Positions 24,783-31,716 of a stretch of 61,993 nucleotides of DNA are shown piece after piece. How positions within the stretch are numbered: the first letter of the stretch is position 1; every line of letters starts with the position of its first letter. Both the position numbers and the translations under genes were made by a program. The DNA comes from an uncultured Bacteroidota bacterium (GTDB lineage Bacteria > Bacteroidota > Bacteroidia > Bacteroidales > GWA2-32-17): assembly GCA_903872185.1 (NCBI GenBank), contig CAIQJL010000092.1, positions 1-61,993 of the forward strand. The letters run 5' to 3'. The notes beneath the pieces were generated by a model. The model did no database searches, had not been told where the DNA came from, and saw only the letters and a program-made list of their open reading frames with translations.

Positions 24783-25664
24783 ATGATAAATCTCAAATCT
24801 TTATTCAAGATATTTTTAATTTTATTAATTGCCGCTACTGCTTTTGCAAGTGTAAGTACCCACCATAAGCCTACTCTAAAACAAACTTATAAAGCAGTTA
24901 AAAAAATTATTTGGAAGGAAATAGAACGAGGATTGTACTTTGCAGAATTTGATGCTCCTTTAAAATCAGTTGTTGGTGATTCAAAATTATCAATATTAAA
25001 AATAGATCCTAATTACTATTCATTTGAATTAATGGCTGCAACTGAATATGATAGCTTAAGACGTACAGTAGAACAATGGAGCCTTGACTTTAATCTAGTT
25101 GCAGTTGTAAATGCTGGTATGTTTAACCTTTCTGATCACTATACTGGTTCTGGATATTTTTGTAATTATGCTCACGTTAACAATGGAAGAATAAGAGAAA
25201 ACTTTCGAGCAATGGCATTGTTTAATCCAAAATCTAAAAAGTTTCCCGCAGTTAATATTGTTGATATGGAGACAGAAAATTGGGAATTTCTTAGAGAAAA
25301 TTATAATTCAGCTTTTCAAGACATAAGAATGATTGATTGTAATCAAAAACAAGTTTTATGGAAACCAAGAAGACCCATTTCTAGCAGTATGTGTGTGTTA
25401 GGAACAGATAAAAAAGGAAATGTTTTATTTGTTTTTACCAGATCGCCCTACACTGCAAATACTATGAGCAAATTTTTATTGAGCTTACCGTTAAATATTT
25501 TCAGTGTAATGTATTTAGATGGTGGTCCGGAATCTTCATTATATGTAAATGCAGGCGATACAATTATTGAAAAAGTTGGAAGTTGGGTTTCGCCTGGATA
25601 TGCAAACGATGACAATAATTATTTTTGGGAATTACCCAATGTTATTGGGGTTAAAAGGAAATAA
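24783..25664 (+). CDS. Phosphodiester glycosidase (NAGPA-like) family exported protein
   Basis: Signal peptide; VVNAGMF; MYLDGGPES motif; PNVIGV end. Confidence 0.7.
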   Translation: MINLKSLFKIFLILLIAATAFASVSTHHKPTLKQTYKAVKKIIWKEIERGLYFAEFDAPLKSVVGDSKLSILKIDPNYYSFELMAATEYDSLRRTVEQWSLDFNLVAVVNAGMFNLSDHYTGSGYFCNYAHVNNGRIRENFRAMALFNPKSKKFPAVNIVDMETENWEFLRENYNSAFQDIRMIDCNQKQVLWKPRRPISSSMCVLGTDKKGNVLFVFTRSPYTANTMSKFLLSLPLNIFSVMYLDGGPESSLYVNAGDTIIEKVGSWVSPGYANDDNNYFWELPNVIGVKRK

Positions 25665-25701
25665 TAGAAAGATTTAAATTATCTATTATTATATTTACAT
25701 T

Positions 25702-26313
25702 ATGGAAAATATGGAATTTAAATCATCGCCCGAAATACAGGAAAAACTTTCAACTTATGGAACAGTTAAAGCATTTAGCGAAGGTGATATTATTTTAAAT
25801 GAGAACGCATACATAAACGTAATACCTATTGTTATAAAGGGAAGTATTAAAGTTCTTCGCACTGATGAAGATGGGCGTGAAATTTTACTTTATTATATAA
25901 AATCTGGAGAAAGTTGTATAATGTCGATTTTTGGAGGAATTCACAATGATACCAGCAAAGTAAAAGTTGTTGCCGAAGAGGAAACAGAAATTTTATTTAT
26001 TCCAATTGATAAAGTTAGCTTGCTTATTAAGGACTATCCTGAATGGGTTGATTATATTTTCAGATTATACCATAAACGATTTGAAGAATTACTGGAAGTA
26101 GTAAATGCAGTTGCATTTAAAAAAATGGACGAAAGGCTACTAAACTTACTTCAAAAAAAATGTGAGTTGGCAAATAATAAAACTATTTCAGTCACTCATG
26201 ATCAACTTTCAAATGAGCTAGGAACCGCAAGAGTAGTAGTGTCCCGACTACTTAAGCAAATGGAAAACGAAAATCTTGTACTGCTAGGTAGAAATAAAAT
26301 TACCCTTATGTAA
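25702..26313 (+). CDS. Crp/Fnr family transcriptional regulator
   Basis: cNMP-binding-like N-terminus (LYYIKSGESCIMS); HTH THDQLSNELGTARVVVSRLLK; no FNR-type N-terminal Cys cluster. Confidence 0.92.
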   Translation: MENMEFKSSPEIQEKLSTYGTVKAFSEGDIILNENAYINVIPIVIKGSIKVLRTDEDGREILLYYIKSGESCIMSIFGGIHNDTSKVKVVAEEETEILFIPIDKVSLLIKDYPEWVDYIFRLYHKRFEELLEVVNAVAFKKMDERLLNLLQKKCELANNKTISVTHDQLSNELGTARVVVSRLLKQMENENLVLLGRNKITLM

Positions 26314-26389
26314 CAAAAGTAGCTGTACTCAATATTTTTATGTTTGACCTTTGCAGTGTATATAATTAAACACTAAAAAAATCAACTAT

Positions 26390-26614
26390 ATGAAAATTAA
26401 CATGGGTACAATCGACAGAGTTGCAAGAATTCTTGTAGCAGTCGCAATAGGAATTGCTTACTTTACAAATATTATTTCAGGAACTTTAGCAATTGTTCTA
26501 TTAGTTTTTGCATCAATCTTTATTCTCACAAGTTTAATTAGTTTTTGTCCGTTATACCTACCTTTAGGTATTTCTACAAGAAAAAAAGAAACTAAAACTA
26601 ATAATGTAATATGA
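26390..26614 (+). CDS. DUF2892 (YgaP-like) membrane protein
   Basis: NMGTIDRVARI...FCPLYLPLGIST. Confidence 0.9.
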   Translation: MKINMGTIDRVARILVAVAIGIAYFTNIISGTLAIVLLVFASIFILTSLISFCPLYLPLGISTRKKETKTNNVI

Positions 26615-28302
26615 AATATTTAATTGTTGGTGCTGTTGCAGGTGGAGCAAGTACAGCTGCCAGATTAAGAAGAAACGATGAAAATTCAGAAATCGTTATT
26701 TTTGAAAAAGGCGAATATATCTCTTATGCTAATTGCGGCTTACCATATTATATAGGTAATGTAATAAAAAACAGAAATGCATTGTTTGTTCAAACCGCAG
26801 CTTCGTTTAATAAACGCTTTAATATTGATGTTAGAACAATGACAGAGGTTACTGCAATTAACCCTACAACAAAAACCATTACGGCAAAAAACCATACTAC
26901 AGGAGAAATTTATGAAGAAAGTTACGATAAATTAGTTTTATCTCCAGGCGCAGAACCTATTCGCCCACCTTTACCTGGTATTTCTAATGAAGGAATTTTC
27001 ACTTTAAGAAATGTTGCAGATACCGATTATATAAAAAGTTTTGTTCAACAAAAAGAAGTTAAAAAAGCTGTTGTAATTGGTGCTGGATTTATTGGCTTGG
27101 AAATGGCTGAAAACCTTCACGAGCTTGGTCTTGATGTTACAATTGTTGAAATGAGTAATCAGGTTTTAGCACCAGTAGATTACCCGATAGCCGCTATTTT
27201 ACAACAACATATACGTTCAAAAGGTGTTCAAATCAGATTAAGTACAACCGTAAGTGGTTTCGAGAAAACTGAAAATAATTTAAAAGTCCTATTAAAAGAT
27301 GGAGATATTATAGATGCAGACGTTGTTATTCTTTCAATTGGTGTAAAACCTGACACAAAACTTGCAATACAAGCCGGATTAAAAATTGGTGATGCAAAAG
27401 GAATTTGGGTTAATGAATTTTTACAAACATCAAATCCTGATATTTATGCAGTCGGCGATGCTATAGAGTTTAATAATCCGATAACAAATAAGTCGATGAT
27501 TACTTATTTAGCAGGACCTGCAAATAAGCAAGGACGTATATGTGCAAATAATATAGCATTTGGAAACAACCAAAAATATAACGGATCAATAAATACTGCC
27601 ATTGTAAAAGTATTTGACATGACAGTTGCAACAGCTGGCACAGCGTCAAAACATTTACATCAGGCAAATATTAAACACATTGTTTCAACAACAAATAGCG
27701 GTTCGCATGCAGGATATTATCCTGGAGCAAAACAAATGACAATTCAAATTGCATTTACTCCAGAAGATGGTAGGTTACTAAGTGCTCAAATCGTAGGTTT
27801 TGACGGCGTAGATAAACGCTTAGACATTCTAGCATCAGCAATAAAAAGAAACAGTACTATTGATGAAATTACTGAATTTGAACATGCATACGCACCTCCA
27901 TTTTCCTCGGCAAAAGATCCAGTTAATATGGCTGGTTTTGCAGCAGAAAATATTTTACAAAAAAAATCAGTAATATATTATTGGAATGAATTTGATAAAA
28001 TTACTTCTGATGATATTTTGATTGATGTTAGAACTAAAAATGAATATACTGCTGGTAAAATTTTAAATGCTATAAATATACCTGTTGATGAACTTAGAAG
28101 CAGAATTTCTGAAATCCCAAAAGATAAAAAGATTTACATTTATTGTCTTGGTGGATTAAGGGGATATTTAGCACAAAGAATTTTAACCCAAAATGGATTT
28201 ACTAGCACTTTAAATCTATCTGGCGGATACCAAATATGGGATACTTGCACAAGAGAACTAAATTTAACAAATAAAAAAGTACTCATTGATGAACTTCGTT
28301 AA
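26611..28302 (+). CDS. CoA-disulfide reductase with a C-terminal rhodanese domain (CoADR-RHD / persulfide reductase type)
   Basis: GAVAGGAS; SYANCGLPY (redox Cys); IGAGFIGLE; YAPPFS; rhodanese DVR...YCLGGLRGY. Confidence 0.92.
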   Translation: MKYLIVGAVAGGASTAARLRRNDENSEIVIFEKGEYISYANCGLPYYIGNVIKNRNALFVQTAASFNKRFNIDVRTMTEVTAINPTTKTITAKNHTTGEIYEESYDKLVLSPGAEPIRPPLPGISNEGIFTLRNVADTDYIKSFVQQKEVKKAVVIGAGFIGLEMAENLHELGLDVTIVEMSNQVLAPVDYPIAAILQQHIRSKGVQIRLSTTVSGFEKTENNLKVLLKDGDIIDADVVILSIGVKPDTKLAIQAGLKIGDAKGIWVNEFLQTSNPDIYAVGDAIEFNNPITNKSMITYLAGPANKQGRICANNIAFGNNQKYNGSINTAIVKVFDMTVATAGTASKHLHQANIKHIVSTTNSGSHAGYYPGAKQMTIQIAFTPEDGRLLSAQIVGFDGVDKRLDILASAIKRNSTIDEITEFEHAYAPPFSSAKDPVNMAGFAAENILQKKSVIYYWNEFDKITSDDILIDVRTKNEYTAGKILNAINIPVDELRSRISEIPKDKKIYIYCLGGLRGYLAQRILTQNGFTSTLNLSGGYQIWDTCTRELNLTNKKVLIDELR

Positions 28303-28498
28303 AAAATATAAATTAACAATAATTGGAATAATTGCTGGTGCAATTGCTGGTTATCTTTATTATTATTTTGTTGGGTGCGCAAGTGGAACTTGTGCCATCA
28401 CATCAAAACCAATCAATAGCACTTTATATGGAGCTATGTTAGGCGGATTATTATTAAACACTTTTAAAAAAGAACAATCAAAAACAGAAATAAAATGA
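28286..28498 (+). CDS. Small membrane protein with a GC-SGTC motif (DUF6132-like)
   Basis: GYLYYYFVGCASGTCAITSKP; two TM segments. Confidence 0.75.
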   Translation: MMNFVKKYKLTIIGIIAGAIAGYLYYYFVGCASGTCAITSKPINSTLYGAMLGGLLLNTFKKEQSKTEIK

Positions 28499-28779
28499 AT
28501 ATCGAAAAGATTATTAAAGAAAATCAAGGCACAATAGTAGATGTGCGAACACCCCAAGAATTTTTTGGAGGAAATGTTATTGGATCAATTAATGTTCCTT
28601 TACAGGAAATTGAAATGAGATTAGACGAAATTAAAAAAATGAAAACTCCTTTAGTACTCTGTTGTGCATCAGGCGCCAGAAGCAATGCTGCGTATAATTT
28701 TCTAGCTCAAAATGGTATTGATTGCTGCAATGCAGGCACCTGGTTAAATGTAAATTATTATCAATCTTTAGCTGTTTAA
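28495..28779 (+). CDS. Single-domain rhodanese
   Basis: VDVRTPQEF; active loop CCASGARS. Confidence 0.9.
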   Translation: MNIEKIIKENQGTIVDVRTPQEFFGGNVIGSINVPLQEIEMRLDEIKKMKTPLVLCCASGARSNAAYNFLAQNGIDCCNAGTWLNVNYYQSLAV

Positions 28780-28782
28780 CAA

Positions 28783-29097
28783 ATGATACAAGCAATTAAA
28801 AACATACTCGGATTTGGTCCAAAAGTAGATTATGCCGAATTAGTAAAACAAGGTGCAATAATTTTAGACGTTCGTACTAAAGGCGAATTTGACACCGGAC
28901 ACATTAAAGGATCTTTAAATATTCCTGTTAATACTTTAAGTAATAACATTAAAAAGTTTAAAGACAAAAATAAAGCAATAATAACATGTTGCGCCAGTGG
29001 ATCAAGAAGTGCAATGGCAAAAAGTGTATTAAAATCAAATGGATTTTCGCAAGTGCACAATGGCGGAAGTTGGTATAGCTTGAAAAACAAAATATAG
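28783..29097 (+). CDS. Single-domain rhodanese
   Basis: LDVRTKGEF..GHIKGS; CCASGSRS. Confidence 0.9.
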   Translation: MIQAIKNILGFGPKVDYAELVKQGAIILDVRTKGEFDTGHIKGSLNIPVNTLSNNIKKFKDKNKAIITCCASGSRSAMAKSVLKSNGFSQVHNGGSWYSLKNKI

Positions 29098-29348
29098 TGA
29101 TAAAGAAAGTTCTTTTAAGTAATTGGCATTTCATGCGAATTATTAGATTGGTAGCAGGTGTTTATTTTGCAATAAATGCAATTAAAACTCATGATACTAT
29201 TTCTGGAGTGATTGCAGTATTCTTGTTATTTCAGGCAATTACAAATACTGGATGCTGCGGTGTAAGCGGTTGCTCTACTTCACCAGTAAAATCAGACACA
29301 AATAATTCAACTGAAATAGAATTTGAAGAAATAAAACAAAAATCATGA
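29097..29348 (+). CDS. Small membrane protein (DUF2892-like) with a GCCG motif
   Basis: WHFMRIIRL; two TM segments; NTGCCGVSGC; EIEFEEI tail. Confidence 0.7.
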   Translation: MIKKVLLSNWHFMRIIRLVAGVYFAINAIKTHDTISGVIAVFLLFQAITNTGCCGVSGCSTSPVKSDTNNSTEIEFEEIKQKS

Positions 29349-29641
29349 CTACATTTTCAGAAATAATTAATCAAGATAAATTAACGTTGGTCGACTTTTC
29401 GGCAGAATGGTGTGGTCCATGTAAAATGATGAAACCCATTTTAAATGATTTAAAAAATAAAATAGGCGACAATGCAACAATTATAAAAGTTGATGTAGAC
29501 AAAAGTCCTAACGCAGCAGTTGAGTATAACATTAAAGGTGTTCCAACCTTAATACTTTTTAAAAACGGCGAAATAAAGTGGAGGCAATCAGGTGTTGTAC
29601 AGGCAAATATGTTAGAAATAATAATTAGTAATAATTTATAA
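29345..29641 (+). CDS. trxA: Thioredoxin
   Basis: DFSAEWCGPCK; cis-Pro GVPT. Confidence 0.92.
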   Translation: MTTFSEIINQDKLTLVDFSAEWCGPCKMMKPILNDLKNKIGDNATIIKVDVDKSPNAAVEYNIKGVPTLILFKNGEIKWRQSGVVQANMLEIIISNNL

Positions 29642-29645
29642 TAGA

Positions 29646-30359
29646 ATGAAAAAGTATTTAATATTAAGTAATATTATAATTGCATTTTTGATTATAAGTT
29701 GCGCTGATGGTCAAAATAAATCAACAAAAACAAGCCTTTCGGCTTCTGAGTTTTCTGAAAAAATTAAGCAAACTCCAAAAGCACCGGTAATTGATGTTAG
29801 AACTCCAGATGAATTTTCAAAAGGACATTTGAAATCTGCAAAAAACATAAATATAAACGGTAACGATTTTAATCAACAGATTTCAAAAATCGAAAAATCT
29901 AAACCAGTTTTTGTATATTGTTTAAGTGGCGCTAGAAGTTCATCAGCTGCAAGTTATATGCGCAGTTCGGGATTTAAAGAGGTTTACGAGCTTTCTGGTG
30001 GGATAATGAAATGGAGAGCAGCTAATTTGCCTGAAACGACTGAAAATGAAACTGCATCAGCCGGAATGACTAAAAAACAATACGATAATCTTTTAAATTC
30101 AAATAAACTTGTTTTGATTGACTTTTATGCAGATTGGTGTGCACCATGTAAAAAAATGAAACCATATTTAGAAGAGATCTCAAAAGAAATGGCAGACAAA
30201 GTTGTTGTTATTAGAATAAATGCTGATGACAATCAATCACTTTGTAAAGAACTACAAATTGATGCACTTCCTGTTTTATCACTTTATAAAAACAAAGCTC
30301 AAATCTGGACAAATAAAGGATATATCAGCAAAGAAGACGTTTTAAAACAGCTAAAATAA
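29646..30359 (+). CDS. Lipoprotein with fused rhodanese and thioredoxin domains
   Basis: Lipobox IISC; DVRTPDEF, YCLSGARS; DFYADWCAPCK. Confidence 0.88.
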   Translation: MKKYLILSNIIIAFLIISCADGQNKSTKTSLSASEFSEKIKQTPKAPVIDVRTPDEFSKGHLKSAKNININGNDFNQQISKIEKSKPVFVYCLSGARSSSAASYMRSSGFKEVYELSGGIMKWRAANLPETTENETASAGMTKKQYDNLLNSNKLVLIDFYADWCAPCKKMKPYLEEISKEMADKVVVIRINADDNQSLCKELQIDALPVLSLYKNKAQIWTNKGYISKEDVLKQLK

Positions 30360-30361
30360 AG

Positions 30362-30402
30362 TTTTAGACCTAACAAGTCTTAAAGACCTGTTAGGTCTAA
30401 AA
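30362..30402. repeat. REP-like palindrome, copy 2
   Basis: TTTTAGACCTAACAAGTCT-TAA-AGACCTGTTAGGTCTAAAA, 2 nt after the stop codon. Confidence 0.8.
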
Positions 30403-30495
30403 AGTTTAACCCTTCATCAAAAAAATTGTATTTTAAAATTTGAAGGTTGGTAAATGTAACTCGTTATTTATATTTTTGTAGTATTATTGTAAATA

Positions 30496-31716
30496 ATGAA
30501 TTACCAAACCTACACTTTAAAAAACGGACTTCGTTTAATTCATCAACAAACCGAGAGGCAAGTTGCTCATTGTGCTATAATTGTAAACACAGGTACAAGA
30601 GACGAACTTGAAAACGAACACGGCATTGCACATTTTCTTGAGCATATTGTTTTTAAAGGTACCAGTAAGCGAAAGGCATATCATATTATTAGCAGAATGG
30701 AGGATGTTGGTGGCGAAATTGATGCATACACTACCAAAGAAGAAACATGTATTTATGCATCTTTTTTAAGTCAATATTACGATCGCACAATGGAATTAAT
30801 TAGCGATATGATTTTTAATTCTTCATATCCCGAAAAAGAAATAATCCGCGAAAGAGAAGTAATTTTAGATGAAATAAATTCCTATAATGATAGTCCAGCC
30901 GAATTAATTTATGATGATTTTGAAGAACTTATTTTTGACGGGCATCCACTTGGCAGAAATATTTTAGGAACAAAAAAATCTTTAAAAAAATTCCGAGGAT
31001 CTGATTTTAGCGATTTTGCAAAAAGAACTTATAATACCGACCAAATGGTTTTTTGCTCAGTAGGTAATATAACATTTGAAAAAATAGTTAAGTACTTCGA
31101 AAAATATTTTGGTGAAATTCCTGCAAACCCCAGAAACTGGAAACGAAAATCTTTTAAAAATTTAACCCCTGTTCAAAAAATAATTTCAAAAAAAACTCAT
31201 CAGGCACATTGCATTATTGGAACAACAGCTTTTAATTTCAGAGATAAAAAACGACTCCCTTTTCTTTTATTAACTAATCTATTAGGCGGATCAGGGTTAA
31301 ATAGCAGATTAAATCTTTCGCTTCGCGAAAAAAACGGATTAGTTTATTACGTTGAATCTTCTTACACACCATATTTTGATACAGGAATTTTTAATATTTA
31401 TTTAGGTTGTGATAAGGATAAGCTTAACAAAGCGCAACATCTTATTAATAAAGAGATTTCCAAAATTAAAAATGATCTTCTTGGAATCAATCAACTACAA
31501 CGCGCTAAACAACAAATGACCGGTCAAATTGCGATTTCACTTGAGAACTCAGAAAATCTATTATTAAGCCTTGGAAAAAGTTATTTGCTCTATAATAAAG
31601 TTGACAGTATTGAAGTTGTTACCGAAAGAATTGAACAAATCACATCAAAAGACATTATGGAAGTTGCTAACGAAGTTTTCATAGAAGATAATTTTTCAAC
31701 TCTAATTTACAAATGA
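30496..31716 (+). CDS. M16 family zinc peptidase
   Basis: HFLEH (HxxEH), DAYTTKE, SRLNLSLREKNGLVY. Confidence 0.92.
   Translation: MNYQTYTLKNGLRLIHQQTERQVAHCAIIVNTGTRDELENEHGIAHFLEHIVFKGTSKRKAYHIISRMEDVGGEIDAYTTKEETCIYASFLSQYYDRTMELISDMIFNSSYPEKEIIREREVILDEINSYNDSPAELIYDDFEELIFDGHPLGRNILGTKKSLKKFRGSDFSDFAKRTYNTDQMVFCSVGNITFEKIVKYFEKYFGEIPANPRNWKRKSFKNLTPVQKIISKKTHQAHCIIGTTAFNFRDKKRLPFLLLTNLLGGSGLNSRLNLSLREKNGLVYYVESSYTPYFDTGIFNIYLGCDKDKLNKAQHLINKEISKIKNDLLGINQLQRAKQQMTGQIAISLENSENLLLSLGKSYLLYNKVDSIEVVTERIEQITSKDIMEVANEVFIEDNFSTLIYK

Follow-up and report, generated by a model that had tools for sequence, protein, structure and literature searches.

The operon described here lies on a 61,993-nt stretch of DNA from an uncultured Bacteroidota bacterium (contig CAIQJL010000092.1 of assembly GCA_903872185.1), referred to below as the window. 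It comprises nine tightly packed plus-strand genes, g1 to g9, spanning positions 25702-30359, which encode a Crp/Fnr-family regulator (g1), a fusion of CoA disulfide reductase (CoADR) and rhodanese (g3), two free rhodaneses (g5 and g6), a thioredoxin (g8), a rhodanese-thioredoxin lipoprotein (g9) and three Cys-bearing two-helix membrane miniproteins (g2, g4 and g7). It is a real, conserved and well-delimited operon, probably for reactive-sulfur detoxification, with a type of regulator and with membrane parts that are both undescribed. Judging from its gene content and from its relatives, it is probably an accessory cassette for the homeostasis of reactive sulfur species (persulfides and polysulfides), and a reductive variant of a module that is found Bacteroidota-wide; most likely, the cassette would clear toxic reactive sulfur by reduction with NAD(P)H. 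In most relatives, a fusion of persulfide dioxygenase (PDO) and rhodanese is expected to oxidize the sulfur with the help of TauE, and the CoADR-rhodanese appears here in their place.

The predicted parts are distributed over cytoplasm, membrane and periplasm, and the whole is best read as a two-compartment system of reactive-sulfur homeostasis. An earlier interpretation of this DNA, made from its letters alone (hereafter the sequence-only reading), had seen in it a Crp/Fnr-linked sulfane-sulfur system, and the comparisons reported below support a conserved, co-regulated system of this kind.

Distribution of the gene set and exchange of its catalytic head

A scan for relatives of g3 covered 80 Bacteroidota loci, mostly from freshwater metagenome-assembled genomes and labelled as Chitinophagaceae, Saprospiraceae, Sphingobacteriia, Bacteroidales or Flavobacteriales. 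Most or all of g1-g9 were present in about 20 of these 80 loci, in shuffled orders such as 1-2-4-5-6-7-8-3-9, 3-2-4-5-6-7-8-9 and 1-3-2-4-5-6-7-8-9, and the same gene set recurred in independent loci that were reached through DUF6132, the family of g4. Because the set is kept while its order is shuffled, its persistence points to functional coupling rather than to inherited synteny, and the genes have not come together by chance. The carriers of the module include a cultured bacterium, Ginsengibacter hankyongi BR5-29 (L092).

The close homologs of DUF6132 formed 2899 clusters, and neighbourhoods were looked up for three of them. All three contained DUF6132, two rhodaneses and a g7-type protein, while the thioredoxin and the rhodanese-thioredoxin lipoprotein were found in two of the three, as were the Crp/Fnr gene and the gene for DUF2892, the family of g2. 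In the place that g3 takes in the window, directly upstream of DUF6132, each of the three carried a Lactamase_B-Rhodanese fusion of about 450 aa, which has the architecture of a CstB-like persulfide dioxygenase-rhodanese, and in two of them a half-size TauE was located between the DUF2892 gene and this fusion. Compared with those of the window, the module proteins in these loci show 54-81% identity, and the g5 orthologs in PDO-variant loci 68%. By sequence comparison, then, the window holds a rarer, reductive variant of a common Bacteroidota module whose usual head is a PDO-rhodanese, often accompanied by TauE, since the slot upstream of DUF6132 is occupied by a CoADR-rhodanese where relatives usually have a PDO-rhodanese. 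Among 60 DUF6132 loci that were fetched from a balanced sample of the phylum, the head enzyme was PDO-rhodanese in 10 and CoADR in one. In this sample, DUF6132 occurred in 94 of 401 genomes and in 67 of 180 genera, compared with none of 14 control genomes.

The possibility that the two heads had been swapped by recombination inside their shared rhodanese domain was considered and rejected, because the rhodanese domain of g3 is only 34-40% identical to those of the PDO fusions, and no closer to them than to g5, g6 or g9. This low identity indicates that the catalytic head was exchanged as a whole gene.

The CoADR-rhodanese fusion

Pfam recognizes in g3 Pyr_redox_2 (3.5e-65), Pyr_redox and Pyr_redox_dim, as expected of a pyridine-nucleotide disulfide oxidoreductase with FAD, NAD(P)H and dimerisation domains, and a rhodanese domain at residues 467-544. 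The protein could be aligned over its full length with the structures from Bacillus anthracis (3icr, 1e-170), Shewanella loihica (3nta, 7e-158) and Enterococcus faecalis (the CoA-persulfide reductase 8a56, 1e-146). It has the single redox Cys near residue 42 within an S(F/Y)ANCGLPY motif, Cys42 being part of SYANCGLPYY, which is aligned with SFANCGLPYY of 3icr; the rhodanese loop CLGGLR carries Cys512. Such strong homology predicts an NAD(P)H-dependent reduction of CoA persulfide, and possibly of polysulfide.

The cluster has no gene for PDO, sulfide:quinone oxidoreductase (SQR), TauE or YeeE, exactly as the sequence-only reading had stated, and a search of the genome retrieved neither a PDO-rhodanese fusion nor the SQR-like and DsrE2 genes of relatives. 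The description of the locus as purely reductive is supported.

Transcriptional control

The regulator g1 consists of an effector domain followed by a C-terminal HTH_Crp_2 domain and keeps the Crp fold. In the alignment with Escherichia coli CRP (4bh9), however, the position of Arg82 is occupied by Thr, the recognition helix reads RVVVSR and not RETVGR, and neither the cAMP-binding residues of CRP nor an FNR-type N-terminal Fe-S Cys cluster was found. The only Cys residues of g1 are 72 and 154. Cys72 sits by the former cAMP pocket and is invariant in all 26 cluster-linked homologs, 23 of which have a second pocket Cys five or six residues further on. It is a reasonable inference that Cys72 could sense sulfane sulfur. 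The closest solved structure, PDB 3dv8, comes from structural genomics; this Crp/Fnr-family protein is uncharacterised and has a Cys aligned to Cys72 (MDMCLLS vs GESCIMS).

The regions downstream of the Crp gene in related loci share a palindrome, GTAAC-N4-GTTAC, which was matched at 8/10 or better in 16 of 19 regions (0.8 expected from shuffles). Moreover, in 14 of the 19, the window included, a TTTG ends exactly 36.5 or 37.5 nt from the centre of the palindrome, where shuffles gave 0.2. The Bacteroidota -7 box, TAnnTTTG, has TTTG as its core, and if transcription begins a few bases past the box, the centre of the operator would lie near -41.5, the position of a class II activator. A genome-wide scan for operator plus -7 spacing, intended to define the regulon, was dropped as too noisy, since in this AT-rich genome it returned 62 hits from 5046 loose sites.

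Membrane and periplasmic components

From their Lys/Arg counts, all three miniprotein families are hairpins with both termini in the cytoplasm and with short loops that are nearly free of Lys and Arg. The product of g2 matches PF11127 across positions 1-66 of 66, and positive-inside analysis places its Cys53-Pro at the cytoplasmic end of the second transmembrane helix (TM2); this Cys is invariant (45/45). In g4, Cys31 and Cys36 are likewise invariant (89/89) and lie in the inter-helix loop, which is poor in Lys and Arg and predicted to be periplasmic; the AlphaFold2 model has a helix at 2-29, a loop at 30-41 and a helix at 42-68 (pLDDT 79). The motif of g7, C53-C54-G-x3-C59, again with invariant Cys, is found just past TM2, on the predicted cytoplasmic side, and the model shows helices at 10-31 and 34-48 and a disordered tail, which ends with a conserved acidic (F/Y)EE motif. 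The g7 family counts 1657 representatives (50% identity) at E<=0.001, and no Pfam model scores above threshold. Of the three Cys motifs, two are thus predicted to lie on the cytoplasmic side and a single one, the DUF6132 pair, on the periplasmic side. As for the lipoprotein g9, its lipobox Cys is invariant (16/16) and is not followed by an acidic surface-export motif, so that the protein most likely faces the periplasm.

In E. coli YgaP the rhodanese domain is cytosolic, and C159 is located at the C-terminal end of TMH2 (PMC4730233), the place equivalent to that of Cys53 in g2. By analogy, g2 and the free rhodaneses look like a split YgaP. A DUF2892 gene was about 10-fold up with H2S in Azospira suillum (PMC5358917).

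The sequence-only reading had gone further, and had proposed a purely reductive chain linking polysulfide outside the cytoplasm to cytoplasmic NADH by way of membrane Cys carriers. In detail, the lipoprotein would capture the polysulfide, the Cys residues of the three miniproteins would pass on sulfur or electrons to or from the cytoplasm, and the CoADR-rhodanese would there couple the chain to NADH. Parts are indeed predicted in all three compartments, with an invariant dithiol of DUF6132 in a periplasmic loop and a DUF2892-type Cys at the inner face; g9 weakly matches, in both its rhodanese and its thioredoxin part, the NCBIfam model TsoB, a rhodanese/DsbD/thioredoxin fusion; and none of about 140 related loci (beside DUF6132 or CoADR-rhodanese) contains a CcdA/DsbD gene. 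On the other hand, most relatives have a PDO-rhodanese instead of a CoADR, so NADH and CoADR are not obligate partners of the other components; because the same parts (the 54-81% identical proteins mentioned above) serve an O2-dependent dioxygenase together with TauE in most relatives, the accessory parts do not depend on CoADR/NADH. Furthermore, no path across the bilayer is evident in a hairpin of two helices that has its two Cys on the same face, and among the nine products Pfam and NCBIfam found no molybdopterin, Fe-S or membrane-anchor domain of respiratory polysulfide or thiosulfate reductases (PsrABC/PhsABC). Periplasmic thioredoxin folds ordinarily receive their reducing power through DsbD/CcdA, for which this genome has 4 hits outside the cluster; each of the 20 other DUF6132-bearing genomes that were tested encodes it too. 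With the orientation of the Cys motifs against it as well, a chain driven by CoADR and NADH is not supported as stated, and we regard it as unlikely. The claim that the membrane proteins are the undescribed part of the system, by contrast, is one with which we agree.

The partners of DUF6132 across the phylum also bear on this question, and are counted in favour of a chain across the membrane, or of a weaker version of it. Thioredoxin-fold genes are neighbours of DUF6132 in about 50 of 60 loci. In about 20, its partner is a ResA/TlpA-like protein anchored in the membrane, and in roughly half of the latter it is preceded by a second, larger thioredoxin-fold gene; the single one of these that was scanned (L131) codes for a TIGR02187-type, cytoplasmic-type protein disulfide oxidoreductase. 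The ResA/TlpA-paired loci, which have no rhodanese genes, belong to one large lineage of the phylum (L130-L135, L139, L140, L142, L144, L146-L148, L151, L152, L155, L157, L167 and L176). Since DUF6132 occurs beside ResA/TlpA-like genes in the absence of rhodaneses, a thioredoxin fold is suggested as its basic partner. A role of DUF6132 as a replacement for DsbD/CcdA was nevertheless rejected, because DsbD_TM genes are present in 20 of 20 tested DUF6132 genomes and in that of the window; the DsbD_TM model itself (PF02683) matches none of g2, g4 and g7.

A related idea is that the three miniproteins constitute a hitherto unrecognised minimal membrane relay for thiols or sulfane sulfur that works beside DsbD. 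The dithiol on the periplasmic side would come from DUF6132, the Cys at the cytoplasmic face from DUF2892 and the g7 family, and the relay would link cytoplasmic thioredoxin and rhodanese to periplasmic thioredoxin folds (g9 here, ResA/TlpA-like proteins in other lineages). The Crp protein, whose pocket Cys is invariant, would in this reading be a dedicated sensor of reactive sulfur that acts as an activator and represents a new structural class. We consider this combination improbable.

Two other arrangements around DUF6132 were noted. A recurrent four-gene set consists of an N-terminally anchored rhodanese (~128 aa), DUF6132, DUF302 and a thioredoxin (~125 aa), and was seen in L141, L160, L162, L164, L172, L177 and L180, in some with a neighbour resembling an extracytoplasmic function (ECF) sigma factor. 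In another locus (L097:6201-7820), a 539-aa protein with Por_Secre_tail, a type IX secretion signal, is encoded within the module, between DUF6132 and the two rhodaneses.

The locus and its setting in the genus

The features of the locus are collected in Table 1. The gene inventory of the sequence-only reading was confirmed with Pfam and NCBIfam, and amounts to four rhodanese domains, two CxxC thioredoxin domains, three Cys miniproteins, the CoADR-rhodanese and the lipoprotein. The junctions from g2 to g9 measure -17 to +4 nt. For g4, a TTG start would give 70 aa and the ATG 69 aa. The free rhodaneses g5 and g6 belong to distinct subfamilies, and inspection of the g5 translation by eye showed no signal peptide, which is present in g9 ahead of the lipobox. 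The hairpin that follows g9 is likely the terminator of the operon.

Table 1. Coordinates of the genes and of the putative regulatory elements of the operon in the window.
Feature	Positions	Strand	Product or sequence	Basis or remark
g1	25702..26313	+	Crp/Fnr regulator, 203 aa	Pfam cNMP_binding and HTH_Crp_2
Candidate operator	26310..26323	+	GTAACAAAAGTAGC	8/10 match to GTAAC-N4-GTTAC; overlaps g1 stop codon
Putative -7 box	26346..26353	+	GACCTTTG	Bacteroidota type, consensus TAnnTTTG; last G 36.5 nt from operator centre
g2	26390..26614	+	YgaP-like_TM/DUF2892 two-helix membrane protein, 74 aa, motif SFCPLY	Pfam, E 2e-20
g3	26611..28302	+	CoADR-rhodanese fusion (CoADR-RHD / Npsr / CoAPR type), 563 aa, Cys42 and Cys512	
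g4	28286 (TTG) or 28289 (ATG)..28498	+	DUF6132 two-helix miniprotein, GCASGTC	Pfam
g5	28495..28779	+	Single-domain rhodanese, predicted cytoplasmic, 94 aa, loop C57-ASGAR, Cys56 just before	
g6	28783..29097	+	Single-domain rhodanese, predicted cytoplasmic, 104 aa, loop C70-ASGSR	
g7	29097..29348	+	Two-helix miniprotein, DUF2892-like, 83 aa, GCCGVSGC	Pfam DUF2892 below threshold
g8	29345..29641	+	Thioredoxin, predicted cytoplasmic, 98 aa, WCGPC	Pfam; TIGR01068, 103.8 bits (cut-off 96.8)
g9	29646..30359	+	Rhodanese-thioredoxin lipoprotein; lipobox Cys19, rhodanese Cys92, thioredoxin WCAPC (C165-APC168)	
Palindrome	30362..30402	.	19-bp stem, REP-like	Directly 3' of g9 stop

The flanking genes are unrelated housekeeping genes, coding for an M17 peptidase, NAGPA, an M16 peptidase and an O-methyltransferase. 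The upstream NAGPA gene was ruled out as a member of the operon, since its conservation does not extend beyond the genus and the empty site has it as well. The g3 gene was found in three of eight genomes of the genus, and the interval between NAGPA and M16 (window 25664-30496; loci L197-L200) is variable. Three genomes have the sulfur operon there, while others, one genome each, have 60 bp of empty sequence, a gene for a 561-aa membrane protein, a gene for a 508-aa protein, or other cargo. Within the genus, the cassette has been cleanly inserted or deleted between two housekeeping genes, and the Crp gene is part of the indel, so that the regulator moves with the structural genes.

The same genome contains a paralogous trio on another contig (C145:5498-6710, minus strand), composed of a Crp gene, a DUF2892 gene and a g6-type rhodanese gene, whose products are 71%, 75% and 49% identical, respectively, to those of the window. 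As in the window, a palindromic site (here GTAAC-N4-GTAGC) is located at the stop of the Crp gene. This trio suggests that Crp, DUF2892 and a g6-type rhodanese are the minimal unit of the system. Downstream of it lies a TonB-dependent receptor gene; upstream are genes which, labelled by eye, encode thioredoxin-fold proteins, a thioredoxin-flavoprotein fusion (thioredoxin reductase-like), and radical-SAM-like, ArsM-like methyltransferase and OsmC-like proteins.

Proposed function

A working scheme can be drawn from these data. The Crp-family protein would sense sulfane sulfur by the invariant Cys of its rebuilt effector pocket and, as the comparison of loci suggests, would bind GTAAC-N4-GTTAC, centred some 41.5 nt upstream of the point where transcription starts, and activate g2-g9. 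In the cytoplasm, the CoADR-rhodanese, with NAD(P)H, FAD, Cys42 and Cys512, is predicted by strong homology to convert CoA persulfide (possibly polysulfide) to H2S and CoASH. The two free rhodaneses, presumably non-redundant, may gather sulfane sulfur from other persulfides and deliver it to CoA or to the CoADR-rhodanese, and the thioredoxin g8 may reduce persulfidated proteins. At the inner face of the membrane, g2 and g7 would expose their Cys as partners of the free rhodaneses and of the thioredoxin, and, to judge from the homology with YgaP, would act with them as the membrane portion of a split YgaP. In the periplasm, the rhodanese domain of g9 could take up sulfane sulfur, from which the fused thioredoxin would free H2S; the CxxC of g9 would then be recycled by the housekeeping DsbD/CcdA, possibly helped by the periplasm-facing dithiol of DUF6132.

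Several observations weigh against this scheme. What g9 and the three miniproteins would do is deduced from topology and neighbourhood only. The genome has no recognisable SQR that could be a source of persulfide, one SQR type having been sought. About half of the close relatives of the CoADR-rhodanese are outside the module, either solitary or beside SQR-like, DsrE2 or DsrC/TusE genes, and g3 is therefore not tied to the module. In addition, the operator of the window scores only 8/10, and the second pocket Cys is missing both from g1 and from the other copy in the genome.

A last point of this kind concerns the genes added to the module in relatives, which code for a methyltransferase (class I or TPMT family), for an HMA protein or for the half-size TauE. 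The frequency of TPMT-type methyltransferases and HMA proteins could mean that the substrates are not sulfur but selenium, tellurium or soft metals. The cassette would then detoxify chalcogen oxyanions or thiophilic metals (selenite, tellurite, Hg/Cu/Ag-type thiophiles), with rhodaneses and thioredoxins handling persulfide-like Se/Te adducts, the CoADR-rhodanese reducing them, and the Cys miniproteins binding or moving thiophiles in the manner of MerT, MerF and MerE. Two-helix proteins with a Cys pair resemble small mercury transporters, if only in outline; the HMA proteins carry a CxxC, a fusion of TPMT methyltransferase and HMA with a Cys-rich N-terminus is encoded between the two rhodanese genes of one module (L023:7062-7913), and the paralogous trio is about 5 kb from the ArsM-like, thioredoxin-fold, thioredoxin reductase-like and OsmC-like genes described above. 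However, the cluster of the window has neither a methyltransferase nor an HMA gene, Pfam and NCBIfam detect no Mer homology, and the TPMT matches reach 53 bits, far under the Se/Te equivalog cut-off of 223. Moreover, the alternative head, a persulfide dioxygenase with a member of the TauE sulfite-exporter family, performs sulfur-specific chemistry, and we judge a role in Se, Te or metal resistance to be very unlikely.

If sulfur homeostasis is retained as the probable function, disposal must still be distinguished from acquisition. Rhodanese and thioredoxin can work together as a thiosulfate reductase, as in GlpE-type enzymes, and the rhodanese-thioredoxin pairs of periplasm and cytoplasm might cleave thiosulfate or polysulfide to provide sulfide for cysteine and cofactors under sulfur limitation. 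Every step of the proposed scheme ends in H2S, which is assimilable, and an accessory, patchy cassette, present in three of eight genomes, would suit such a use. Nevertheless, neither the cassette nor related loci were found to carry a gene for a thiosulfate or sulfate transporter or for cysteine synthase; the exchange for a dioxygenase, which turns sulfur into sulfite for export, points to disposal; and a dedicated Cys-bearing activator suits a stress sensor. We judge acquisition, too, to be very unlikely.

Comparison with known systems

The detoxification of reactive sulfur has been well studied in Firmicutes and Proteobacteria, where it is governed by the CstR, SqrR/BigR and FisR regulons; our literature search turned up no publication that deals with this module of the Bacteroidota, with DUF6132 or with the g7 family. 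The module is of general interest because one accessory set accepts either an O2-dependent dioxygenase or an NAD(P)H-dependent reductase, a natural experiment which separates the functions of the accessory parts from that of the catalytic head. The exchange of heads hints at adaptation to low-oxygen freshwater niches, and the locus offers small, defined targets for the study of DUF2892/YgaP and DUF6132 function.

Among the enzymes, characterized CoADR-rhodanese/Npsr proteins reduce persulfides and polysulfides in an NAD(P)H-dependent manner and have CoA bound (PMC7969121, PMC6026696). The g3 protein aligns over its full length, both active-site Cys included, with 3icr, 3nta and the Archaeoglobus fulgidus protein 6pfz (E 1e-170 to 5e-112). 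The characterized proteins, however, are single enzymes outside an operon of this kind, whereas the substrate of g3 is predicted from sequence.

Among the membrane proteins, E. coli YgaP is the nearest to g2, which matches its membrane domain over the full length, has the Cys where TMH2 ends on the cytoplasmic side, and shares its operon with rhodanese genes. YgaP fuses rhodanese to DUF2892, while g2 and g7 have no rhodanese domain and g5 and g6 are separate genes; the export of thiocyanate by YgaP is a proposed, unproven role. With the DsbD/CcdA-TlpA/ResA relays, the operon shares a periplasmic CxxC fold (the C-terminal domain of g9) that needs cytoplasmic reducing power. The core of DsbD/CcdA, however, has 6-8 helices, with Cys in two transmembrane helices, while DUF6132 is built of two helices and has its two Cys in the same loop.

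The closest characterized system is the cst-like operon of E. faecalis, which is controlled by CstR and encodes RhdA, RhdB and CoAPR, that is, CoAPR and two rhodaneses; CoAPR converts CoASSH to CoASH and H2S and is strongly induced by sulfide (PMC9405070). Both operons combine a CoADR-rhodanese, with its catalytic Cys42 and its rhodanese Cys, with two rhodaneses; both are reductive, and both are devoid of PDO and SQR. The regulator of the window is a Crp/Fnr protein and a predicted activator, in contrast with the CsoR-family repressor CstR, and none of the additional components of the window, namely the three Cys miniproteins, the thioredoxin and the periplasmic rhodanese-thioredoxin lipoprotein, has been reported for the enterococcal operon. 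The operon of the window would work like a cst-like operon but is not a member of that family, because its only regulator is of the Crp/Fnr type and CstR is absent.

The cst operon of Staphylococcus aureus (CstR; TauE, CstA, CstB, SQR), on the other hand, corresponds in function to the commoner form of the Bacteroidota module, with PDO-rhodanese and TauE. Compared with it, the operon of the window has no PDO, TauE or SQR, a regulator of another family and other membrane and periplasmic parts, and it has a CoADR-rhodanese in place of PDO-rhodanese and TauE.

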